IMG/VR virus record: IMGVR_UViG_2563366848_000004
Reading direction: 5' to 3' (one strand)
DNA: 42,367 bases
Source of the DNA: a virus
Taxonomy: Duplodnaviria; Heunggongvirae; Uroviricota; Caudoviricetes
The notes under the pieces were generated by a model. It was not told the origin of the DNA. It searched no databases and saw only the letters and a program-made list of their open reading frames with translations. How positions within the stretch are numbered: the stretch's first letter is position 1; the number at the start of each line of letters is the position of its first letter. The position numbers and the translations under genes are program-made. Positions 1,195-12,181 of this stretch are shown in pieces.

Positions 1195-1433
1195 TTTATC
1201 TTCTTTTTATCCTCCCACTCTTTGATTGACTCAGAGCGCCAGCGGTTAGGGTTGCCGGGCCAGTCAGGGGGTGGGAACGGGCATACGAAGCCCCGAGGCA
1301 TTGTGTCTGCACTTTGCCATGACCAAAGGGTTTTGCGTGAAATTTTGTAGCGACTGGTCAGGTCTGACGTTACCAAAATATCATCCATAGCTCTCTCCAG
1401 TTGCCCGTTCGGGCCATTCAAAATCTTTTTCAA
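1191..1433 (-). CDS. AlpA/Xis-like excisionase (small HTH protein)
   Basis: 80-aa ORF convergent with int (4-nt overlap); segment [15 protein letters not shown] ... ESIKEW resembles AlpA-family HTH and C-terminal W..E.I.EW motif. Confidence 0.6.
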
Positions 1434-1672
1434 CCAACCTGCCCGGGCAGGGAGCGGAGACGGCGCATGCCGGTCATCGCTGTGGCCACGTAGCTCGCCT
1501 TTCGGTTCACCACCTCCACCCAGACTTTCACGCCTTCAACCTTCACCGTATAAGTCTCTTTCATCTTGCTTCGCCCATAGTCGCCATATGTTTGCAAGTG
1601 AGCTGCCAGCGCGATGTCGCATGCTTGGCGAGCTAAAGGTGATTGCTTACTTCCTCGATTGATCAGTCGCAT
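1430..1672 (-). CDS. hypothetical early protein (80 aa)
   Basis: ORF with AAGGAG 6 nt upstream of ATG; ATGA stop/start overlap with downstream xis-like gene; no family recognised. Confidence 0.5.
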   Translation of the reverse strand: MRLINRGSKQSPLARQACDIALAAHLQTYGDYGRSKMKETYTVKVEGVKVWVEVVNRKASYVATAMTGMRRLRSLPGQVG

Positions 1673-1710
1673 ATAATCTCCTTGAGGGAGGGTTACCCCT
1701 CCCGGTCTCG

Positions 1711-2823
1711 TCAGGCCACGTATTCCGGTTTCATATCCGCCAGGGTGATGCTGAATTGATCGTGCAGTTCATCGCCTAAGTGACGCTTTGAAGATGCAAG
1801 CATGCGCTCGGCTTCAGCGAACCGTTCGGCTGCATGCGGCTCGTCGGGCTGGGGCAGGGATTTAATAGCCTCCTCAACCTTGTTGCGTGCATCCACTAGG
1901 TAATAACGCTTTACGGCTTTGTTTTTCAGCTCGGTGAATAGTGCGGATCCCAGCGTAGCTTTCGCCGTTTCAATGTCGGCACGCAGCGATTTGGCGCTAT
2001 CCACGTCCTGAGCAGATTCGATGCGTTCGCGGAAATCATCGGCAAGAGAGTCGACATTTACCGACGATTCCTGTGCGCTTTGCGTGGTTGTGACGGTGTC
2101 ACCTGAGATATCAGCCAGGCTAACGCGTTGCGGCGTTGGGTTGATCTCTTTTTCTGTGCGCTGTTCAATCTCATCAGGGGTGTACACACCAAGAACAACT
2201 GCAGGGCAATACAGGCGCGCCCAGTATTTGAGTGCCAGATAAGCGATCTGCTGTTTCGGGTTTGATACCCAAAGTGGAGAATTACGTGTGATTACGCTGG
2301 AGAGGAAAACAGGCTCTCCCCAGGTGATATCACTTTCACCGCGAATAACGGCACCTACCCGTACCGACAGTCCTTGTTCATCAGCACTTTCCCAACCGCG
2401 TACCATTTCTTTCTTGTCGTACGTCCCGCCACCTTTCGCAGGCTTTTTAACGGTTATCTCGCGGCTGCTGGCACATTTCGACCAGTCGCCCTCGTACTCA
2501 TAGTGAAAGCGGCCAACGATGGCGTTTGAGCTGGAGATCACCGCATTAACCAGTTGCGCTTCGTATCCCAGGACACCGTTAACCAGGTGCGTCTTTTGCG
2601 CCACGGCGTAAGGGTTCATACCCCACTGCATCGCCTGCATGATGATGGCCATGCAGTCTGCCGGATTGCCGCGGAGGTGCTCAGGCACCGTTACGGCTGC
2701 CTGTGCCATCAACCCGGCGACAGACTGAAGCTGGGTTAAAGCCTGCACGTTGAAAATGGCATTGCTGGCTGAGATCGTGTTTGGAGTCTGCTGTTCAGCG
2801 GTTACGATATTCGTGTTTTCCAT
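1711..2823 (-). CDS. single-strand annealing protein, RecT/Bet family (tentative)
   Basis: 370-aa ORF immediately downstream of the RecE-like nuclease gene, the classic exonuclease-annealase pair; AAGGGGA SD before third ATG of MMM; core pattern A..I...Q.G.NP...NG loosely resembles Bet-like annealases (from memory). Confidence 0.55.
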   Translation of the reverse strand: MENTNIVTAEQQTPNTISASNAIFNVQALTQLQSVAGLMAQAAVTVPEHLRGNPADCMAIIMQAMQWGMNPYAVAQKTHLVNGVLGYEAQLVNAVISSSNAIVGRFHYEYEGDWSKCASSREITVKKPAKGGGTYDKKEMVRGWESADEQGLSVRVGAVIRGESDITWGEPVFLSSVITRNSPLWVSNPKQQIAYLALKYWARLYCPAVVLGVYTPDEIEQRTEKEINPTPQRVSLADISGDTVTTTQSAQESSVNVDSLADDFRERIESAQDVDSAKSLRADIETAKATLGSALFTELKNKAVKRYYLVDARNKVEEAIKSLPQPDEPHAAERFAEAERMLASSKRHLGDELHDQFSITLADMKPEYVA

Positions 2824-2834
2824 CATCATTCCCC

Positions 2835-5744
2835 TTATGCATGAGTACGCAGCGCTTCAAGGCGGCGCAGGTCGAAGTCGTTCAGTTCGTCGGTGTAGTC
2901 AGCAGTGATTGGCGCTGGCCATTCACCTGTGTCGAATCCGGTTGCGATATTGCGCATCGCTTTGCGGTACTCGAGCATACCCAGCTCCAGTAGTTCAGCG
3001 GATGCCTCGATGATGGCGATCCAGTGGTAGTTCTCGTCTTTGTTGACGAAAATCCAGAAGAACTGATCCAGCGCTGCGGTTTCGCAGTACATAGCCGCGC
3101 TCAGGTGATAATCACGTTCAATAATTTCCCGGTGTAGCCTGGCGCGCAGGCTTTCCTGCTTAACATTCCACATGCTGATGGTTTTCAGGTCAGCACCGAT
3201 ACGCACGCCGTCTAGGTCGATCTCAAGGTCAGGACGCACACGAACTTCCAGTCCCGTCTCCTCGTCAAAGCCAAAGTAGCTCACCTCAACGGCGCGGCTC
3301 GGGTGGGTTAGCAGCATGCCTGCGGTCGGGTGCGAGAGCAGTGCTGACTGAATTGCCTGCGCGGTGGCAAGTTGCTGGTGGGTAACCAGCACTTTCCCTT
3401 CCGGGTTGTTGCGCCAAGCATCGAGCAGCTCGTCGGCGAACACTGCATCTGGTTTGACTGCCTTCACGGCCTGAATCAGATCGGCCTTCGTGCCAGAGAC
3501 TTTCAGCGGTTGCAGCTTCTGAGCTTCCTGCGCGACCAGGTCAGGATTGATAATCGCAAGTTGTTCGAGTAGTGCGTCGCGGCTGCCGCTGGTTTTAATC
3601 TGCGCTGGCAGGGTGGCGTTGTACTCTTTGATGCACGCCTTCATTGCTGTTGCTGTCTTCTTCTGATCTGTATCGATACGTTGGAATTCAGCTGGCAGCG
3701 CCATATAGTTCTGCGCCGTTTCATCCAGGCTAGCGCCCAGCGGCACCAGCGCTGGCAGGGTGGCGTTGTATTCATCCAGCAAAGCTTTGATATCGTCTGC
3801 GCTCAGTTGCGCTGGCAGGCTGGCGTTGTACTCATCAATAAACGCGCGGATCGTTGCCGTGGTGGTAAATGCACCTTCCGGAATTACGGGTTCAACGCTA
3901 AATTCTTCATCGAGCTGTTCTGGCTGCAACGCCAGCGCATGTACCAGGTTTCCCATGTCCAGCACTGAGGAGCGCTCTTTGACGATGGTTTTCTCAACGT
4001 GGCGCGCATTGAAGTACATCAGCGAAACGCGCGCATCTTTTACCTGGGTGGAACTGATGCCGTTGGCAGCGTGGTAAACCTCGTTCGGCAGACCTTCATA
4101 GCGCCCAGGCTCGAAGTAATCGGGGTAAAAAACAGCTTGTTCGTCAGATTGCGCCTCTGGCTCGACGTGTGCCAAAACTGGTTCAGTCTGGTTTACAGAA
4201 TCGCTATTTTGAGCGACAGATTCCGTATTTTGGTTTACATCGGCCTGCTGGCCGGGATGTGACTCTTCACCAGTTTCCAGACTGCTTTCGCCTGACTGCA
4301 TTTCATTACCAACATTTTTTTCATCACTGACAGTTTCTTGAACCTGCACATTGCTGGTGGTTTCCGTAGCCTGTTTCGTGCCATGAGTTGCTGAGTTCTG
4401 CAGTAAAGCCGTAACATCGAATATTCCGTTGCCGACATTTTTAACCAGTTCTTGTTCGGCTTTATGTGGTTGTGCTGTCGCTTCCTCTGCGCGGCGGCGT
4501 GCTTCTTCTTCACGTACGCGTCGCAGGTTCTCTTCGTGAGTGCAGAAGGGTTTGCGTGGAGACTCCTTACTTTCAGGTTGGGGAATTTCCTGTGTTGCGG
4601 GCTCAGCTTCATGCAATGGCAATAACTCAACAGCAGCATTAAACGCAGCAGTCATGGTCCGGTTAACAAACTCCAGGTGAGCGACAGGAGTTAGATGAAT
4701 ATTTTCCGGCGCGATACGTATCAGGTTAAAAATAGCTGTGCGGTTAACGCCAAGAACGCCGGGTTGATTGCGCAGAATGCTGCTCCATGATTTCCACGGT
4801 TCTTCTTTTTTGGTCACGATTTCTTTAGCGCGACGAAGAATGCTGCCCGGGATCTCGAAGTGGTTGAAGTCCATAGGCAGAAGGGCACATGCAATCTCTA
4901 AATCGAGAGTGTCAAGGGTATGGTATGTATCAGGTCCACGGTCAGTGACGTAACCGCCGTTGGCATTGGTTCCGGAATCAGTACGCTGAACACTACTGAT
5001 GTGATTACCGGCAGCCCATTCACGCGCCAGGATGCCACGGTCAATGTAATCAGTAGCCGCCCACATTCTGGTGAAACGGAGTACCAGCGCGAGTTCGTGA
5101 CGCTTGTCCTGGCTGAACACTTTGCGAATGGCATCGGTGTAGCGCCACAGGTCTTTGGTGTCGTAACCCTTCACTTCCGGGCAGTTCTCAGCAGCTAACA
5201 GCAAGTTCTGGACGTAACTGTTATCAGTGTCCATCTCCAGCGCGCCGATAGCTTCGTACTCTTCGCGGGTTACGTGGTGGCGCAGTTCGTCGGCGGTGAA
5301 CTGGGAAAGCAGTTGCTTACGAAACGGCATCTGCACTACCGGGTAGAGGGTTGAGTCGTCGTCGTGTTCGTCCAGCGTGATGCCAGCGGTTTCTGGCAGC
5401 GTTGACTCAGTAGTTATGTGACTATCAACGGTCTGAGCTGTTTTCTCGTCAGAGTTTTCAGCTGTGACTTTTGGCAGCCAGGTGCGGTCATCGTTCTGCA
5501 GTTCGTAGCGTTCGCACCAGGTGTAATCCACTGCGCCTTCTTCCGGCAGGTCGTCATATACCGGGAAATCGGTGCGGATTGGTTTGGCATAATCTTTACC
5601 GCGGCCAGTTTCTTCAATTCCGGCTTCTTCCAGTGCCACATCGAGTTGGAGATTGGCGCGCGCTACACTTTTCGCAGTGAACCAAATCACTGCATCTTTC
5701 TTGCCAGACTTCTGACTGGCTTTTATCAGATGGAAAAATTCCAT
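2835..5744 (-). CDS. RecE-like exonuclease VIII (C-terminal PD-(D/E)xK nuclease domain)
   Basis: 969-aa ORF from internal ATG (MEFFHLIKAS) with AAGAGGA SD; C-terminal region carries RPDLEIDLDG...IGADLKT (PD...DxK nuclease motif); large acidic/low-complexity linker; positioned upstream of annealase as in Rac recE-recT. Confidence 0.65.
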   Translation of the reverse strand: MEFFHLIKASQKSGKKDAVIWFTAKSVARANLQLDVALEEAGIEETGRGKDYAKPIRTDFPVYDDLPEEGAVDYTWCERYELQNDDRTWLPKVTAENSDEKTAQTVDSHITTESTLPETAGITLDEHDDDSTLYPVVQMPFRKQLLSQFTADELRHHVTREEYEAIGALEMDTDNSYVQNLLLAAENCPEVKGYDTKDLWRYTDAIRKVFSQDKRHELALVLRFTRMWAATDYIDRGILAREWAAGNHISSVQRTDSGTNANGGYVTDRGPDTYHTLDTLDLEIACALLPMDFNHFEIPGSILRRAKEIVTKKEEPWKSWSSILRNQPGVLGVNRTAIFNLIRIAPENIHLTPVAHLEFVNRTMTAAFNAAVELLPLHEAEPATQEIPQPESKESPRKPFCTHEENLRRVREEEARRRAEEATAQPHKAEQELVKNVGNGIFDVTALLQNSATHGTKQATETTSNVQVQETVSDEKNVGNEMQSGESSLETGEESHPGQQADVNQNTESVAQNSDSVNQTEPVLAHVEPEAQSDEQAVFYPDYFEPGRYEGLPNEVYHAANGISSTQVKDARVSLMYFNARHVEKTIVKERSSVLDMGNLVHALALQPEQLDEEFSVEPVIPEGAFTTTATIRAFIDEYNASLPAQLSADDIKALLDEYNATLPALVPLGASLDETAQNYMALPAEFQRIDTDQKKTATAMKACIKEYNATLPAQIKTSGSRDALLEQLAIINPDLVAQEAQKLQPLKVSGTKADLIQAVKAVKPDAVFADELLDAWRNNPEGKVLVTHQQLATAQAIQSALLSHPTAGMLLTHPSRAVEVSYFGFDEETGLEVRVRPDLEIDLDGVRIGADLKTISMWNVKQESLRARLHREIIERDYHLSAAMYCETAALDQFFWIFVNKDENYHWIAIIEASAELLELGMLEYRKAMRNIATGFDTGEWPAPITADYTDELNDFDLRRLEALRTHA

Positions 5745-5882
5745 GTGAGATCCTCTTTTTTGAGTGTTAGAATCCCCGGGCCAGAGATAGCGCCCATTGG
5801 ATGTTTTTTGGTTTGGTATAAATTCCGGTGTAACTTTGGTCGGTGGCACCGGACGTGAATCCCGCCTTGCGCGGGTTTTACG

Positions 5883-6044
5883 TTAGCCTTCGTGAGCCAT
5901 CTGGTCGTGCGAAGCGCAACGTTTGGAGCAATACTCTTTTTCTTTGCGCGCCAGCTGTGAGCCGTTGCGATAGAGAAGGGTGCTCTTGATTACTTCCTCC
6001 GTTTTAACCGGCTTGCCGCAATATCCGCATTTCTTGTCTAACAT
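5883..6044 (-). CDS. small zinc-ribbon protein (53 aa)
   Basis: Hand-translated ORF below the track size cut-off: MLDKKCGYCGKPVKTEEVIKSTLLYRNGSQLARKEKEYCSKRCASHDQMAHEG; CxxC ... CxxxC; GGAGGA SD upstream. Confidence 0.4.
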   Translation of the reverse strand: MLDKKCGYCGKPVKTEEVIKSTLLYRNGSQLARKEKEYCSKRCASHDQMAHEG

Positions 6045-6055
6045 GACATCCTCCG

Positions 6056-6262
6056 CTAGTGGCTGAGTCCATGCCCCAGACCGTTCAGATAAACTTCAAC
6101 CAGCAAATCCTTGGTGTAAGTCATTTCTACGCCGCGATGCAGATACAAACGTCCGCGAGCGTTAGCTGATGCCGTCCAGGTTGAGTCTTTGTGTTTGACG
6201 AGCATCCCCGGCTGAACTGCGCCGCGGTTTACTGTCTGTGTACCGTAGTGCTGATGAACCAT
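6056..6262 (-). CDS. small hypothetical protein (68 aa) in the kil-gene position
   Basis: Internal ATG (MVHQHYG...) preceded by TGGAG; first gene downstream of the leftward early promoter, the position of kilR in Rac; no sequence-level identification. Confidence 0.4.
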   Translation of the reverse strand: MVHQHYGTQTVNRGAVQPGMLVKHKDSTWTASANARGRLYLHRGVEMTYTKDLLVEVYLNGLGHGLSH

Positions 6263-6509
6263 GATGTTCTCCAGTTTTTCTGAGTGAACTTCGCTGGTGG
6301 TGCCGCGGCGCTGATCTTCACGGTTGAGCGTTTTAACTCTGCAATTCACCACCGCGAAGCTCACTCTGTGCTTTGCCCTTGTCGCCAGGCTGGCGGAACG
6401 TTTCAAACCTACTGCGCGTTAATCTCACCACCTCATTCCGGTCTTCGTATGCCCCGGACGGCTACTTCGTGGGCTCCATGCCTGGGTGGTTCGTGGTGCG
6501 TCTTGGTGA

Positions 6510-6585
6510 TTGCATATTAAGCCTGAGACTTAAATCATGTCAAGCTCCAGGCGAAATGTGATTGTAAGTTTCAGGCTTAATCGTG
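6510..6585 (-). promoter_or_regulatory. leftward early promoter with operator sites (OL/pL-like)
   Basis: On minus strand TTGACA (6543..6538) - 17 nt - TTAATA (6520..6515); 17-bp site TTAAGCCTGAGACTTAA (6517..6533) overlaps spacer/-10 and is the inverted copy of the OR site; additional half-site TCAGGCTTAA at 6571..6580. Confidence 0.5.
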
Positions 6586-6684
6586 ATGTTCACCGAATTG
6601 CAGGCAAAAAAAATCCCGACGCTAAGGTCGAGATCGGGGACTTCGTGGCTGGGTGTTGGCGGCTGAGATGGTGGGTGAGGGTGT

Positions 6685-6715
6685 AAAAAACCCGGCGCTG
6701 TGGCCGGGTTTTTTC
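6685..6715 (-). terminator. rho-independent terminator (bidirectional-type hairpin)
   Basis: AAAAAA-CCCGGC-gctgtg-GCCGGG-TTTTTT immediately after the stop of the 34-aa ORF. Confidence 0.6.
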
Positions 6716-6716
6716 A

Positions 6717-6821
6717 TTACTGCTGGTTAAATCCTTTCGGCGAGTGCTGCTGTTCTTTATTACCAAATTTTTGATTTACAATGATTTTATAAGCGTTATT
6801 GAGAGCTTGCTTTATAGACAT
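6717..6821 (-). CDS. 34-aa hypothetical basic peptide, translationally coupled to the 435-aa gene
   Basis: Hand-translated: MSIKQALNNAYKIIVNQKFGNKEQQHSPKGFNQQ; arrangement TAA(stop of upstream gene)-cacat-AAGGAG-atatta-ATG; followed directly by the terminator. Confidence 0.4.
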   Translation of the reverse strand: MSIKQALNNAYKIIVNQKFGNKEQQHSPKGFNQQ

Positions 6822-6838
6822 TAATATCTCCTTATGTG

Positions 6839-8143
6839 TTATTGACGATTAAAGTAGTTAGAGTTTAGCTCTTTAGGGAAGTAGTGTTTACGATTTACCC
6901 AAACAAATCCATCAACTTTTGATATCACAGCGACATCAACAGGCCCACCGACAGTTTCATAATCATGTGATACTTTTCTTTTGAATGCAGTGATGTTCAC
7001 TAATGATTCGGCCATATACGCAAGATCTGCCTTCCCAAGTGATTGCAACATCGATATCATTTTATTTGTATGGTTATTAACAATATAGCTTTCAAGTTTA
7101 GTATCGTGATCTTGTAAAAGTACGTTTTTGAGTTCCTCAATTTCACTGGAGAAGTGATTGGCTAGTACTCCATTGTTCATTGCAGGGAAAATATTGCTAG
7201 AAACATAATGATTAAGCCGATCAAAAACTTCCTCTGTAAGAGTTCTGTTAAAATTAATGATGTTAGGGTTGCACCCATCAATGAAAGTTACTACTTCATC
7301 TTCTTGAGCAAATGGTATAACAAACCCCATATTGGTTACCTTATTATGGGATTTATCATCAATATTATGGATCATCAATTTGTTTTTAAAAATGCCGTAG
7401 ATATGAAGAGTGCAAATGGAAGGGTAATATTCTTCCTCTCCATAACCTGTTATAACAATCCCTGAATATGTACGACTAGCATGGACTTTGAAAATTAAAC
7501 AAGTGGAATATAATATGACTTTTTCCATAAGCTCTTGCTGTATATTTTCACAGTTATCAAGAACAATAATTGATGAAATGTATGGCGATATTAAATCTTG
7601 TATATATGCTAAAGCATCATTAAACTCTTCTGTATCAAACCCTTCGAAAAAGAGATTATTCCTTAAGATTCCTATCTCTAAATCAAAGGCTTGCTTAACT
7701 ATGTTTTGAAAAATAACATTGTCGAGTTCAACGGCGGGGTTCATTGTTAAATAGTTTACTACATTATTATCATTAATGTATCTCATCAAACCTTTGAGGT
7801 TATCAACAACAAGGTTTATAACGCAAGCCTCTCTCATTTCATTTGTTATAAGGTCTGAGTTACCATTGATGAATTTTACAAAGTCATTAACATATTCTTT
7901 AATGGTAGGGAAACTAGTTTTCCCCAATTGTTTTCTATAGGATTTAATTATAAGTTCCCACGGTGCGCCACCCAGTGTCGCATTATTATAAATCATGATC
8001 CCCACGGGATGGTGTTTAGATAGTTCGAATAGTTTTTCCGCACTATTATTTATTTTTACTAATCTATTATGCTCTGTGGTGACTGCAGAGTCAGCAGCAA
8101 GGGCGATTCCAGTATTATTTATTACAACAATCTCAGCTGTCAT
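6839..8143 (-). CDS. AT-rich 435-aa protein with proteasome-beta/HslV-like Ntn-hydrolase signature; candidate lysogen-expressed defence protein
   Basis: Long ORF in a markedly AT-rich island; start at ATG 8143 (MTAEIVV..., GGGA upstream) preferred over track start 8242, which has no SD; N-terminus T2-x15-D18 ... K30-I and C-terminus DYETVGGPVDVAVISKVDGFVWV resemble Ntn threonine-protease motifs (from memory); same strand as and downstream of the repressor. Confidence 0.75.
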   Translation of the reverse strand: MTAEIVVINNTGIALAADSAVTTEHNRLVKINNSAEKLFELSKHHPVGIMIYNNATLGGAPWELIIKSYRKQLGKTSFPTIKEYVNDFVKFINGNSDLITNEMREACVINLVVDNLKGLMRYINDNNVVNYLTMNPAVELDNVIFQNIVKQAFDLEIGILRNNLFFEGFDTEEFNDALAYIQDLISPYISSIIVLDNCENIQQELMEKVILYSTCLIFKVHASRTYSGIVITGYGEEEYYPSICTLHIYGIFKNKLMIHNIDDKSHNKVTNMGFVIPFAQEDEVVTFIDGCNPNIINFNRTLTEEVFDRLNHYVSSNIFPAMNNGVLANHFSSEIEELKNVLLQDHDTKLESYIVNNHTNKMISMLQSLGKADLAYMAESLVNITAFKRKVSHDYETVGGPVDVAVISKVDGFVWVNRKHYFPKELNSNYFNRQ

Positions 8144-8164
8144 TGCAAAACATCCCGTGTAGTA

Positions 8165-8201
8165 GTGATAAATATTAATTAAATTGATAGTTTTTTTCAA
8201 T
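8165..8201 (-). promoter_or_regulatory. putative sigma70 promoter for the 435-aa gene
   Basis: Minus-strand TTGAAA (8200..8195) - 17 nt - TAATAT (8177..8172), about 30 nt upstream of start codon 8143; AT-rich DNA raises the chance of spurious matches. Confidence 0.35.
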
Positions 8202-8284
8202 CTAACATAAATGGCGGAATCACCCCCCAGTAAAGACATCATTGTCTCATGGGAACTAAAAATTCAGGACAAACCTAAAGCGAT

Positions 8285-8671
8285 TCAGTCCCCCTGCGAG
8301 CGAATCCGCCCCTTCATGTACTTCTCATACAGCTCATCCAGTTCCTTAAGACGTATCGAAAAGATGCGGAGCATGTTCTGTTGCTCTTCTTCTGGCAGCT
8401 GGCGGTAGAGCTCAAGCAGGCGCTGTTCGTCCGGCTTAAGTCCGTCCTTCTCGCCGACATCCTCACCGAGTAACCAAGGCACAGACACGCCAGCTGCGTC
8501 AGCGACAGCGAGAGCTGATTTCTTGCTGATCACGCCTTTTTTAAACCAGCCGTTCACAGACTGCGGGGTTACCCCAGCAACCCTAGCCATATCGGATTTG
8601 GTCATACCGCGCCCGTTCAGCTCTGAAAGGCGTTCGACAAGTATCGGATTAAGTACGGTTTTCTCTTTCAT
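8285..8671 (-). CDS. prophage repressor, HTH XRE family (CI/RacR-like)
   Basis: 128-aa ORF; HTH segment MTKSDMARVAGVTPQSVNGWFKKG; divergent from the Cro-like gene across an operator-rich intergenic region. Confidence 0.8.
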   Translation of the reverse strand: MKEKTVLNPILVERLSELNGRGMTKSDMARVAGVTPQSVNGWFKKGVISKKSALAVADAAGVSVPWLLGEDVGEKDGLKPDEQRLLELYRQLPEEEQQNMLRIFSIRLKELDELYEKYMKGRIRSQGD

Positions 8672-8704
8672 GGTTAGAAGAATAAGCCTTTTTCTTAAAC
8701 TTGA

Positions 8705-8760
8705 AAATTCGCCTCAGGCTTGACAATAAATTAAGTCTCAGGCTTAATTTGATTGTATTC
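8705..8760 (+). promoter_or_regulatory. rightward early promoter with operator sites (OR/pR-like)
   Basis: TTGACA (8720..8725) - about 17 nt - CTTAAT; 17-bp site TTAAGTCTCAGGCTTAA (8731..8747, arms TTAAG/CTTAA) overlapping the -10; second CTCAGGCTT half-site at 8713..8721 overlapping the -35. Confidence 0.55.
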
Positions 8761-8775
8761 AAATCGGAGACAACG

Positions 8776-8994
8776 ATGAACGGGTTAACGAAAGCCATTA
8801 AGTCCGCTGGCACTGCAACAAATCTCGCAACCATGCTGGGCATCAAGCCGATGTCGGTCAGCCGCTGGAAAAACCGGTACCAGGGCGTGGTGCCTGCTGA
8901 TCGGGTCCTTCAAATCTACGCGGCTACCGGCGTAACTCCACACGAGCTGCGCCCTGATCTCTATCCAAACCCAAGTGACGGTTTACCAAAGTAA
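8776..8994 (+). CDS. Cro-like HTH regulator (YdaS family)
   Basis: 73-aa product from internal ATG with GGAGA SD; ...LATMLGIKPMSVSRWKNRYQGVVPADRVLQIYAATGVTPHELRPDLYP matches the YdaS/Cro-type pattern (HTH followed by P..RV..I...TG......LRPDL). Confidence 0.7.
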   Translation: MNGLTKAIKSAGTATNLATMLGIKPMSVSRWKNRYQGVVPADRVLQIYAATGVTPHELRPDLYPNPSDGLPK

Positions 8995-9005
8995 GGAATG
9001 TAACT

Positions 9006-9545
9006 ATGCAATCACTTACGTATCAACAGAGTAACGGGTTCATTTCAGCAGCGCTGATAAATCGCGCTCAACCAAAACCGGGCGTCAGTTGTGGTGCCCT
9101 CCGTGATGCTGTTCGCGCCTGGTCAGCAGTAGCCGGGCAGGACGTTGTAACGGCCCTGATCGTTGAAGAGTGGCACCGGATAGGTGGCGAAGGTATCGAC
9201 TTTCCGGCAGATCACAGCCGTGCCCGGCAGAAGCTGTTCCGCTTCCTGGATAACCATTTCAACAGCGAACGGTACCGCGAGAACGTCCGCCAGCTGACGC
9301 CGGCAATCCTCGCTGTCCTGCCGATTGAATACCGCAATCGTCTGCTACCAGAAGACAACGTAATGGCTCGTCTGGCAAGGCTGGAGAAGGAAACCAGCGA
9401 AGCGAAGATTGCTGTCGCAATGGATGCGCCACGTCATCAGAAGCTGAAAGAGTTGAGCGAGGGGATCGTGGAGATGTATCGCGTTGACCCTGGGTTAACC
9501 GGTCCGTTGATGGAAATGGTGCAGATTATGCTGGGGGCTATATGA
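9006..9545 (+). CDS. hypothetical early regulatory protein (YdaT/CII position)
   Basis: 179-aa ORF directly after the Cro-like gene; assignment by position only. Confidence 0.5.
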   Translation: MQSLTYQQSNGFISAALINRAQPKPGVSCGALRDAVRAWSAVAGQDVVTALIVEEWHRIGGEGIDFPADHSRARQKLFRFLDNHFNSERYRENVRQLTPAILAVLPIEYRNRLLPEDNVMARLARLEKETSEAKIAVAMDAPRHQKLKELSEGIVEMYRVDPGLTGPLMEMVQIMLGAI

Positions 9546-12161: not shown

Positions 12162-12181
12162 TACTGTATAAAAACACAGTA
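12162..12181 (+). promoter_or_regulatory. LexA (SOS) box overlapping the dinI-like promoter
   Basis: TACTGTATAAAAACACAGTA = CTGT-N8-ACAG with TA flanks, overlapping a TATACT -10-like hexamer, about 20 nt upstream of the DinI-family gene. Confidence 0.7.

Follow-up and report, generated by a model that had tools for sequence, protein, structure and literature searches.

The window analysed here, a 42,367-nt stretch of DNA from a tailed virus (Caudoviricetes; IMG/VR record IMGVR_UViG_2563366848_000004), is 100% identical to a prophage adjoining kch in E. coli Res13-Sevr-PER07-33 (L001). In its left part this prophage carries int, DUF4060, recT, recE, ydaE, a 68-aa ORF, a gap and a 467-aa hypothetical gene; the right part contains genes for an HTH protein, a 'transcriptional regulator', YdaT, the replication proteins O/P and DinI, and then continues to Q and the lysis genes. 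Since a Kil homologue is combined with a repressor that has only an HTH_3 domain, a YdaS-family Cro and YdaT, the window is a lambdoid prophage of the Rac/CP-933P/mEp237 type. Its immunity type has not been studied before, while its architecture is known from lambda and CP-933P, and no paper with a match was found when the literature was searched for the operator sequence. The features discussed below are collected in Table 1. The window also holds two matches to the LexA-box-like pattern CTGT-N8-ACAG, against 0.45 expected: the one at 12164-12179, 21 nt ahead of the DinI-family gene, is plausibly genuine, and the one at 7538-7553, within the AT-rich cargo gene but on its opposite strand, could be a chance occurrence.

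Table 1. Genes and predicted regulatory elements in and around the immunity region of the window.
Feature	Coordinates	Strand	Description
DUF4060	1430-1672	-	annotation of the identical locus L001
recT	1711-2823	-	annotation of the identical locus L001
recE	2835-5744	-	annotation of the identical locus L001
ydaE	5883-6044	-	annotation of the identical locus L001
kil	6056-6262	-	68 aa; first gene of the predicted PL operon; cell-division inhibitor homologue
PL-kil leader	6263-6507	-	about 245 nt, GC-rich; common to heteroimmune relatives up to a mosaic junction at about 6509
PL -10 TAATAT	6514-6519	-	most likely -10, 18-nt spacer; TTAATAT conserved
OL1	6517-6533	-	predicted promoter-proximal operator, reads TTAAGTCTCAGGCTTAA; 17/17 identical to OR1; covers PL spacer and -10
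PL -35 TTGACA	6538-6543	-	predicted; CTTGACA at least 90% conserved; same position in other immunity types and CP-933P
OL2	6540-6556	-	predicted weaker operator, reads TTTCGCCTGGAGCTTGA; 13/17 to OR2
OL3	6564-6580	.	predicted distal operator, plus strand reads GTAAGTTTCAGGCTTAA; 15/17 to OR1
Intrinsic terminator	6604-6637	-	predicted for leftward immunity-region transcription; just upstream of OL3
Bidirectional terminator	6685-6714	.	predicted; perfect 12-bp inverted repeat (I5) with A and T runs; after the cargo gene
AT-rich cargo gene	6839-8143	-	434 aa, about 32% GC; PGAP: 467 aa, 6839-8242; at the place of rexAB in lambda
Repressor	8285-8671	-	128 aa; N-terminal HTH_3, helical C-terminal part
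Putative PRM -10 TATTCT	8679-8684	-	7 nt before repressor ATG; AAGAATA conserved
OR3	8682-8698	+	predicted operator, ATAAGCCTTTTTCTTAA; overlaps putative PRM -10
Putative PRM -35 TTTTCA	8707-8702	-	abuts OR2
OR2	8707-8723	+	predicted operator, ATTCGCCTCAGGCTTGA; overlaps PR -35
PR -35 TTGACA	8720-8725	+	predicted from sequence
OR1	8731-8747	+	predicted operator, TTAAGTCTCAGGCTTAA; covers PR spacer and -10
Cro analogue	8776-8994	+	72 aa, YdaS family; PF15943, 54.2 bits (cut-off 30)
ydaT	9006-9545	+	179 aa; PF06254, 82.8 bits, above cut-off

The 17-mer TTAAGTCTCAGGCTTAA has exactly two exact copies in the window, OR1 on the plus strand and OL1 on the minus strand, 2214 bp apart, which bears out the earlier note's report of an inverted exact copy on a leftward promoter 2.2 kb away. 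The sole further match at up to three mismatches is OL3. By chance 0.11 matches are expected, none of 100 shuffles reached the observed count of 5, and an independent repeat finder recovered the same operator pairs (I1, I2, D1 and D2). OL1 is self-complementary at 14 of 17 positions, with the half-site TTAAG(T/C)CT. What had been recorded as a half-site 40 bp away does exist (TCAGGCTTAA at 6571-6580, 38 nt past OL1) and is in fact part of a complete 17-bp operator, OL3, which lies upstream of the PL -35 at a position where no promoter is visible. OL2, which brings the array to three sites, had not been noticed before. As a side observation, the edge of OL3 (6574-6590, GGCTTAATCGTGATGTT) has a 17-nt inverted match, 88% identical, at 7202-7218 in the cargo gene; this contains a TTAAGCC half-site and is probably due to chance in AT-rich DNA.

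Read along the minus strand, the promoter region consists of TTGACA (6543-6538), TGAT, the operator and TATGCAA. The TTGACA of the TTGACA-17-TTAATA promoter originally proposed is thus in place; TTAATA agrees with TATAAT at only two of six positions, and TAATAT, at 18 nt, is the better candidate, fitting at four of six, including the A at position 2 and the T at position 6. CTTAAT (16-nt spacer) and TTAATA (17-nt spacer) are alternatives, and the exact position of the -10 is ambiguous. The predicted start of PL is at about 6505-6508, and TTGACA-18-TAATAT is the only promoter-like site on the minus strand between 1100 and 6600. The -10 of PR is poorer than that of PL.

When the minus strand at 6495-6600 was aligned with the plus strand at 8665-8770, the whole array proved to be mirrored site by site: 17/17 for OL1 and OR1, 13/17 for OL2 and OR2, and 11/17 for OL3 and OR3, all in mirror orientation. 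From centre to centre, neighbouring sites are spaced 23 and 24 bp at OL and 25 and 24 bp at OR. The two middle sites have the same poor left arm, TTCGCC, and each overlaps its own TTGACA by the first four bases of that hexamer. Apart from OR itself, no part of the window aligns to OR as well as OL does: its local alignment score is 32, against a background with a mean of 7.0, a standard deviation of 1.2 and a maximum of 13; the part comprising O3, O2 and the -35, with O1 excluded, still scores 16 (mean 6.1, sd 1.5). Between the PR -10 and the ribosome-binding site of cro we also observed an inverted repeat, TTTGA-TTGTAT-TCAAA (8748-8763), which is present in the window-type OR sequences, is replaced in other subtypes of this immunity group and has no counterpart at OL.

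Between the two arrays lies the gene of the repressor, whose only Pfam hit above cut-off is HTH_3 (residues 21-67); a Peptidase_S24 (LexA-type) domain was not found in the 128-aa protein by the Pfam search, and therefore RecA-mediated autocleavage, and mitomycin C induction by way of it, are not expected. A BLASTP comparison with PaaR2, the repressor of CP-933P, gave a marginal match (E 9e-4, 21% identity) confined to 43 C-terminal residues, and the motif LPEEEQ / FPEDEQ is common to the two proteins. In a PDB sequence search, the real but weak matches were the HTH domains of 434 repressor (E about 0.1); the top matches, to polyubiquitin, arose from a short resemblance of KDGLKPDEQRLL to KEGIPPDQQRLI and were discarded as spurious. 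As the putative PRM -10 lies so close to the repressor ATG, a leaderless repressor mRNA is implied; the arrangement suggests a leaderless PRM comparable to that of lambda cI. Leaderless transcripts have been described for paaR2 (PMC8630535) and for racR (PMC9638921). To the right of OR, the Cro analogue is followed by YdaT, considered the CII analogue in this phage group (PMC9986795). In some heteroimmune relatives (L003, L007, mEp237 (L011) and SEN34 (L012)), two adjacent HTH genes lie on the repressor strand, the second encoding a protein of about 130 aa; the window has one HTH gene only.

Comparison among prophages indicates with what this region is inherited. Of 5426 complete E. coli genomes, 12 carry the OL core (6505-6590), once each, and exactly these 12 also carry, once each, the core formed by the repressor N-terminal part and OR (8600-8790); the leader/kil side is in 88 genomes and the C-terminal part of the repressor in 56. 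In heteroimmune relatives, identity to the window stops at about 6509, which corresponds to the predicted PL +1. Among these 12 genomes, mosaicism affects the left arm and ydaT, and 6400-8990 is nearly invariant; the natural variants fall in the centre of OR1 (8739), in the OR3 spacer (8693) and outside OL3 (6582), and none falls in an operator arm. These comparisons support the view that OL travels with the repressor and OR, and not with the left arm.

Viral contigs scanned with TTAAGTCTNAGGCTTAA yielded 80 loci, which were selected for at least one exact operator copy, leaving the second site, O2, O3 and the -35 free of selection. In 71 of the 80, the operator accompanies a repressor 80-100% identical to that of the window (61% in one case) and an adjoining Cro 75-100% identical. 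OR1 is present at up to two mismatches in 69 of these 71 loci, and an OL site, at the same stringency, in 57 of the 67 that extend at least 700 nt beyond the repressor; by our own estimate, chance would supply about 5e-4 such sites per locus. These OL sites lie at about 25 different distances from OR1, from 641 to 2548 bp, and are separated from it by unrelated cargo. As a control, the same pattern was searched for in 596 Gb of genomes, one per species: single 17-mers occurred at 69 loci in unrelated phyla, and divergent pairs at two only, both in Enterobacteriaceae (prophages of Citrobacter werkmanii and Atlantibacter subterraneus).

The viral loci provided 45 distinct PL/OL sequences, in which the arms of OL3 and OL2, CTTGACA, the arms of OL1 and the TAT directly past it are conserved in at least 70-90%, with OL1 arms and TAT at 90% or more; in OL2 the arms TT.GCC and CTTGA are kept and the centre is free. 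The operator centres, the 4-nt gap between the -35 and O1, and both flanks vary. This pattern bears on the idea that the conserved 80-bp island is mainly a recombination boundary or a duplicated promoter, with no operator function at the left site. Mosaic junctions do fall at the edges of the island and the adjoining cargo is highly variable, as such a boundary would predict. Conservation within the island is nevertheless uneven, and fixed arms with varying centres are the pattern of protein contacts, not of homology maintained for recombination; heteroimmune relatives change OL and OR in parallel; and a duplicated promoter by itself would set no constraint on OL3, upstream of the -35. We consider this explanation very improbable. 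OL1 is inverted relative to OR1 in the window and flipped in the 641-, 1862- and 2365-bp classes, so that the mirror image stressed in the earlier note is the usual arrangement and not a required one; tolerance of the flip is expected for a near-palindrome bound by a dimer.

The parallel change is best seen when PL (minus strand) and PR (plus strand) of four other immunity types are aligned on their -35 elements (L002/L003, L004, L005/L006 and the mEp237-type L007). Each type has its own operator, common to PL and PR at the same offsets, for example TAAACCAGTGATTTA / TAAATCTGTGGTTTA, TAAACATTGTGTTTAAT / TAAACATAATGTTTAAT and GGTAAAGCGGTGTTTTAC / GGTAAAATGATGCTTTAC; TAAAT-N5-GGTTTA and GTAAA-N7-CTTTAC are examples of operators of this group. 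The CP-933P locus follows this layout too, with an operator of its own at PL and PR. An alignment in the register of the -35 is far clearer than a matrix of 17-mer identities across types, the diagonal of which is only moderately above the off-diagonal values for the AT-rich TAAA...TTTA types.

Taken together, these data lead us to interpret 6510-6585, with a probability of about 0.87, as the left operator and promoter, OL/PL, of a lambdoid prophage resembling Rac and mEp237. As far as sequence and comparison reach, they establish where the sites lie, how these are placed relative to the promoter, that they are linked to the repressor/Cro pair and that they co-vary with immunity type. A different assignment of the protein would have the sites serve only the YdaS-like Cro, or YdaT, with the 128-aa protein not binding at OL. 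The operator is accompanied by Cro as closely as by the repressor, and in E. coli O157:H7 CP-933P repression of the promoter PL933P, with its OL1-3, reaches about 100-fold with PaaR2 and with YdaS alike (PMC8630535). Yet repressor and Cro share operators in every characterized lambdoid switch, including that of CP-933P (PMC8630535), and a lysogen needs kil off while Cro is absent. For YdaT, its motif type TTGATT-N6-AATCAA is not enriched in the window (4 matches against 2.4 expected) and is found neither near 6500 nor at OR. We therefore regard service to Cro or YdaT alone as very improbable, and retain OL as an operator of the repressor.

The genes to the left agree with the OL/PL assignment. 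kil, ydaE, recE, recT and DUF4060 are co-oriented downstream of PL (1430-6262), and no terminator-like site was predicted on the minus strand between 6500 and about 1160, consistent with the proposal in the earlier note that the leftward early genes are under repressor control. The kil product belongs to PHROG 294 (E 2.3e-34) and is 34% identical to KilR of K-12 (E 1e-12). That a kil homologue comes first downstream of PL supports this reading, as a lysogen must keep kil silent. The leader between PL and kil folds modestly better than its shuffles (z = -2.2), and an Rfam scan of 5800-9100, which includes it, gave sub-threshold noise only. It could act as a processing, antitermination or translational-control element for kil. 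A possible relationship to the region upstream of K-12 kilR or to the kilS sRNA was dismissed because no convincing alignment was obtained.

As the earlier note had claimed, the two operator/promoter units bracket the immunity region, with PL/OL, two leftward terminators, cargo, repressor, PRM/OR/PR and cro in this order. The two predicted terminators would halt a repressor-cargo transcript short of PL. The 'small ORF' counted among the bracketed genes (6590-6766) could not be upheld as a gene: neither an annotation nor a family hit supports it, and both terminators fall within it. The AT-rich gene stands, by its place inside the operator bracket, as part of the immunity module, as had been proposed. 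Its start is probably annotated 33 codons too far upstream, making the true product 434 aa, because PHROG 5990, the family of unknown function to which it belongs, and its homologues begin at M34. There are more than 6000 homologues, the best 120 of which are unnamed or 'hypothetical'. Pfam returned no hit for this product, and PADLOC found nothing among cargo, kil and ydaT. Met1-Thr2, Asp18 and the GGPxDVA motif are invariant in the family. In a Foldseek search, the AlphaFold model (pLDDT 86) was matched by beta subunits of the 20S proteasome and by Anbu, at E 7e-5 to 1e-3; the model has about 200 residues of helical insertions. Judged by this model, the immunity region seems to express a proteasome-like Ntn hydrolase, which may have a defence or addiction function.

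The cargo is exchangeable, since different genes occupy this place in other phages with the same immunity. Between OL and the repressor lies a hot spot of cargo, with about 25 insert sizes (OL-OR distances of 641-2548 bp; viral loci L016-L095 and genome loci L124 and L146), in which we found a HipA-like kinase with DUF3037, an AAA_31/ParA-like ATPase, DUF6932 with an unknown gene, a second HTH protein and several unknowns; the 641-bp class has no cargo at all. On a tentative joint reading, to which we give rather low odds, the OL-OR bracket would be a conserved, portable 'cargo slot' in which a single immunity specificity is combined with about 25 inserts, which the lysogen would transcribe together with the repressor and which the tandem terminators would shield from PL. 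Were this so, the cargo genes, especially that of the Thr1/Asp17 proteasome-like protein, would represent uncharacterized anti-phage or addiction functions expressed in lysogens, and a small repressor without a LexA domain would loop OL to OR over 0.64-2.5 kb. The swapping of cargo at the hot spot, with immunity retained, is useful for prophage annotation and for mining defence genes.

The mechanism that we propose follows the classical scheme. In the lysogen, dimers of the 128-aa HTH repressor would bind the three pseudo-palindromic 17-bp OL sites through their half-sites. With the PL spacer and -10 under OL1 and the -35 under OL2, occupancy of both sites would exclude RNA polymerase, and kil, ydaE, recE and recT would be silent. 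Bound to the mirror array OR1-OR2-OR3, the same repressor would shut PR and with it cro, ydaT and the replication genes, and through OR it would probably control its own promoter PRM. The YdaS-type Cro probably uses the same sites. Repression of PL933P in CP-933P provides an experimental precedent for this scheme (PMC8630535). We infer actual binding, an order of site filling, cooperativity between adjacent sites and OL-OR looping through the C-terminal domain; given that the similarity to PaaR2 is marginal, oligomerization and looping are extrapolations. Induction would presumably proceed by a route other than RecA-mediated autocleavage.

Any loop would have to tolerate the whole range of OL-OR spacings, from 0.64 to 2.5 kb, and this four-fold variation is one reason to consider that OL is a real local operator that engages in no long-range interaction with OR, with OL3 spare or vestigial. 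The repressor has only about 50 C-terminal residues, whose resemblance to octamer-forming PaaR2 is slight, and the lack of a visible promoter at OL3 points in the same direction. Lambda CI loops, in contrast, tolerate a wide range of distances, and the arms of OL3 are conserved across 45 distinct sequences despite the absence of an overlapping promoter, which argues for a function such as cooperativity or looping. PaaR2 itself octamerizes (PMC8630535). We judge a purely local role for OL a serious possibility, at somewhat below even odds.

With these assignments, boundaries and cis-elements are now set for an uncharacterized immunity type that is found in prophages of E. coli, Citrobacter and Atlantibacter and in many viral contigs. 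The operator consensus TTAAG(T/C)CT-N-AG(G/A)CTTAA can be offered for testing, together with the prediction that the toxic kil and the recET recombination genes are kept silent directly by the 128-aa repressor. Conceptually, the OL/PL site adds nothing new to the lambda paradigm.

Lambda had been taken as an exact counterpart, and in architecture the likeness is clear. In both, divergent early promoters bracket the repressor and lysogen-expressed cargo (rexAB in lambda), each side has three 17-bp pseudo-palindromic operators about 24 bp apart, of which O1 and O2 overlap the -10 and -35, OL and OR are about 2.2 kb apart, kil and recombination genes lie downstream of PL, and the repressor mRNA is probably leaderless. 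The exactness does not extend to the components: unlike lambda CI, the 128-aa repressor has HTH_3 as its only domain, without the S24/LexA-type cleavage and oligomerization domain, the operators, here predicted from sequence, are unrelated to those of lambda, the stretch from PL to kil shows no evident N gene, Cro belongs to the YdaS family and the role of CII is taken by YdaT.

The Rac prophage of K-12 has the same order of switch genes, with kilR and recET at the left, and a similar half-site, TAAGC/TAGGC. Three operators in its racR-ydaS intergenic region are described, with the sequence (T/A)TAGGC-N3-GCCTA(T/A) (PMC9638921). Their arms are 3 bp apart, whereas the TTAAG/CTTAA arms in the window are 7 bp apart, and RacR, at 158 aa, is barely alignable with the 128-aa repressor. 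The consulted passages of the Rac prophage papers make no mention of a left operator.

CP-933P, whose locus (L010) was retrieved via a published primer, is similar in its small repressor without a peptidase domain, in the YdaS-family Cro and YdaT-family protein to the right of OR, and in a PL -35 that resembles that of PR, with OR-like operators in the spacer and -10; its cargo, a toxin-antitoxin pair, occupies the interval from OL to the repressor, as cargo does in the window. It differs in that its PL and PR contain GTTTAGTAA-type repeats and TAA(G/T)GTTTA(A/T)T...-type sites and not TTAAGYCTNAGRCTTAA (PMC8630535), and, as the operator consensus differs, the window and CP-933P are heteroimmune. 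Their Cro proteins are not alignable, and the left arm of CP-933P is dicB/ydfC. H47, considered as another relative of CP-933P, was rejected as an e14-like prophage with a LexA-family repressor.

mEp237 and the relatives L002-L007 share with the window the backbone of recE, ydaE, kil, leader, PL/OL, cargo, repressor, cro, ydaT and O/P, a repressor C-terminal part about 78% identical in DNA sequence, and an identical register of -35 and operator at both PL and PR. Unlike this backbone, the repressor N-terminal part, Cro, the cargo and all the operators differ between these phages and the window.
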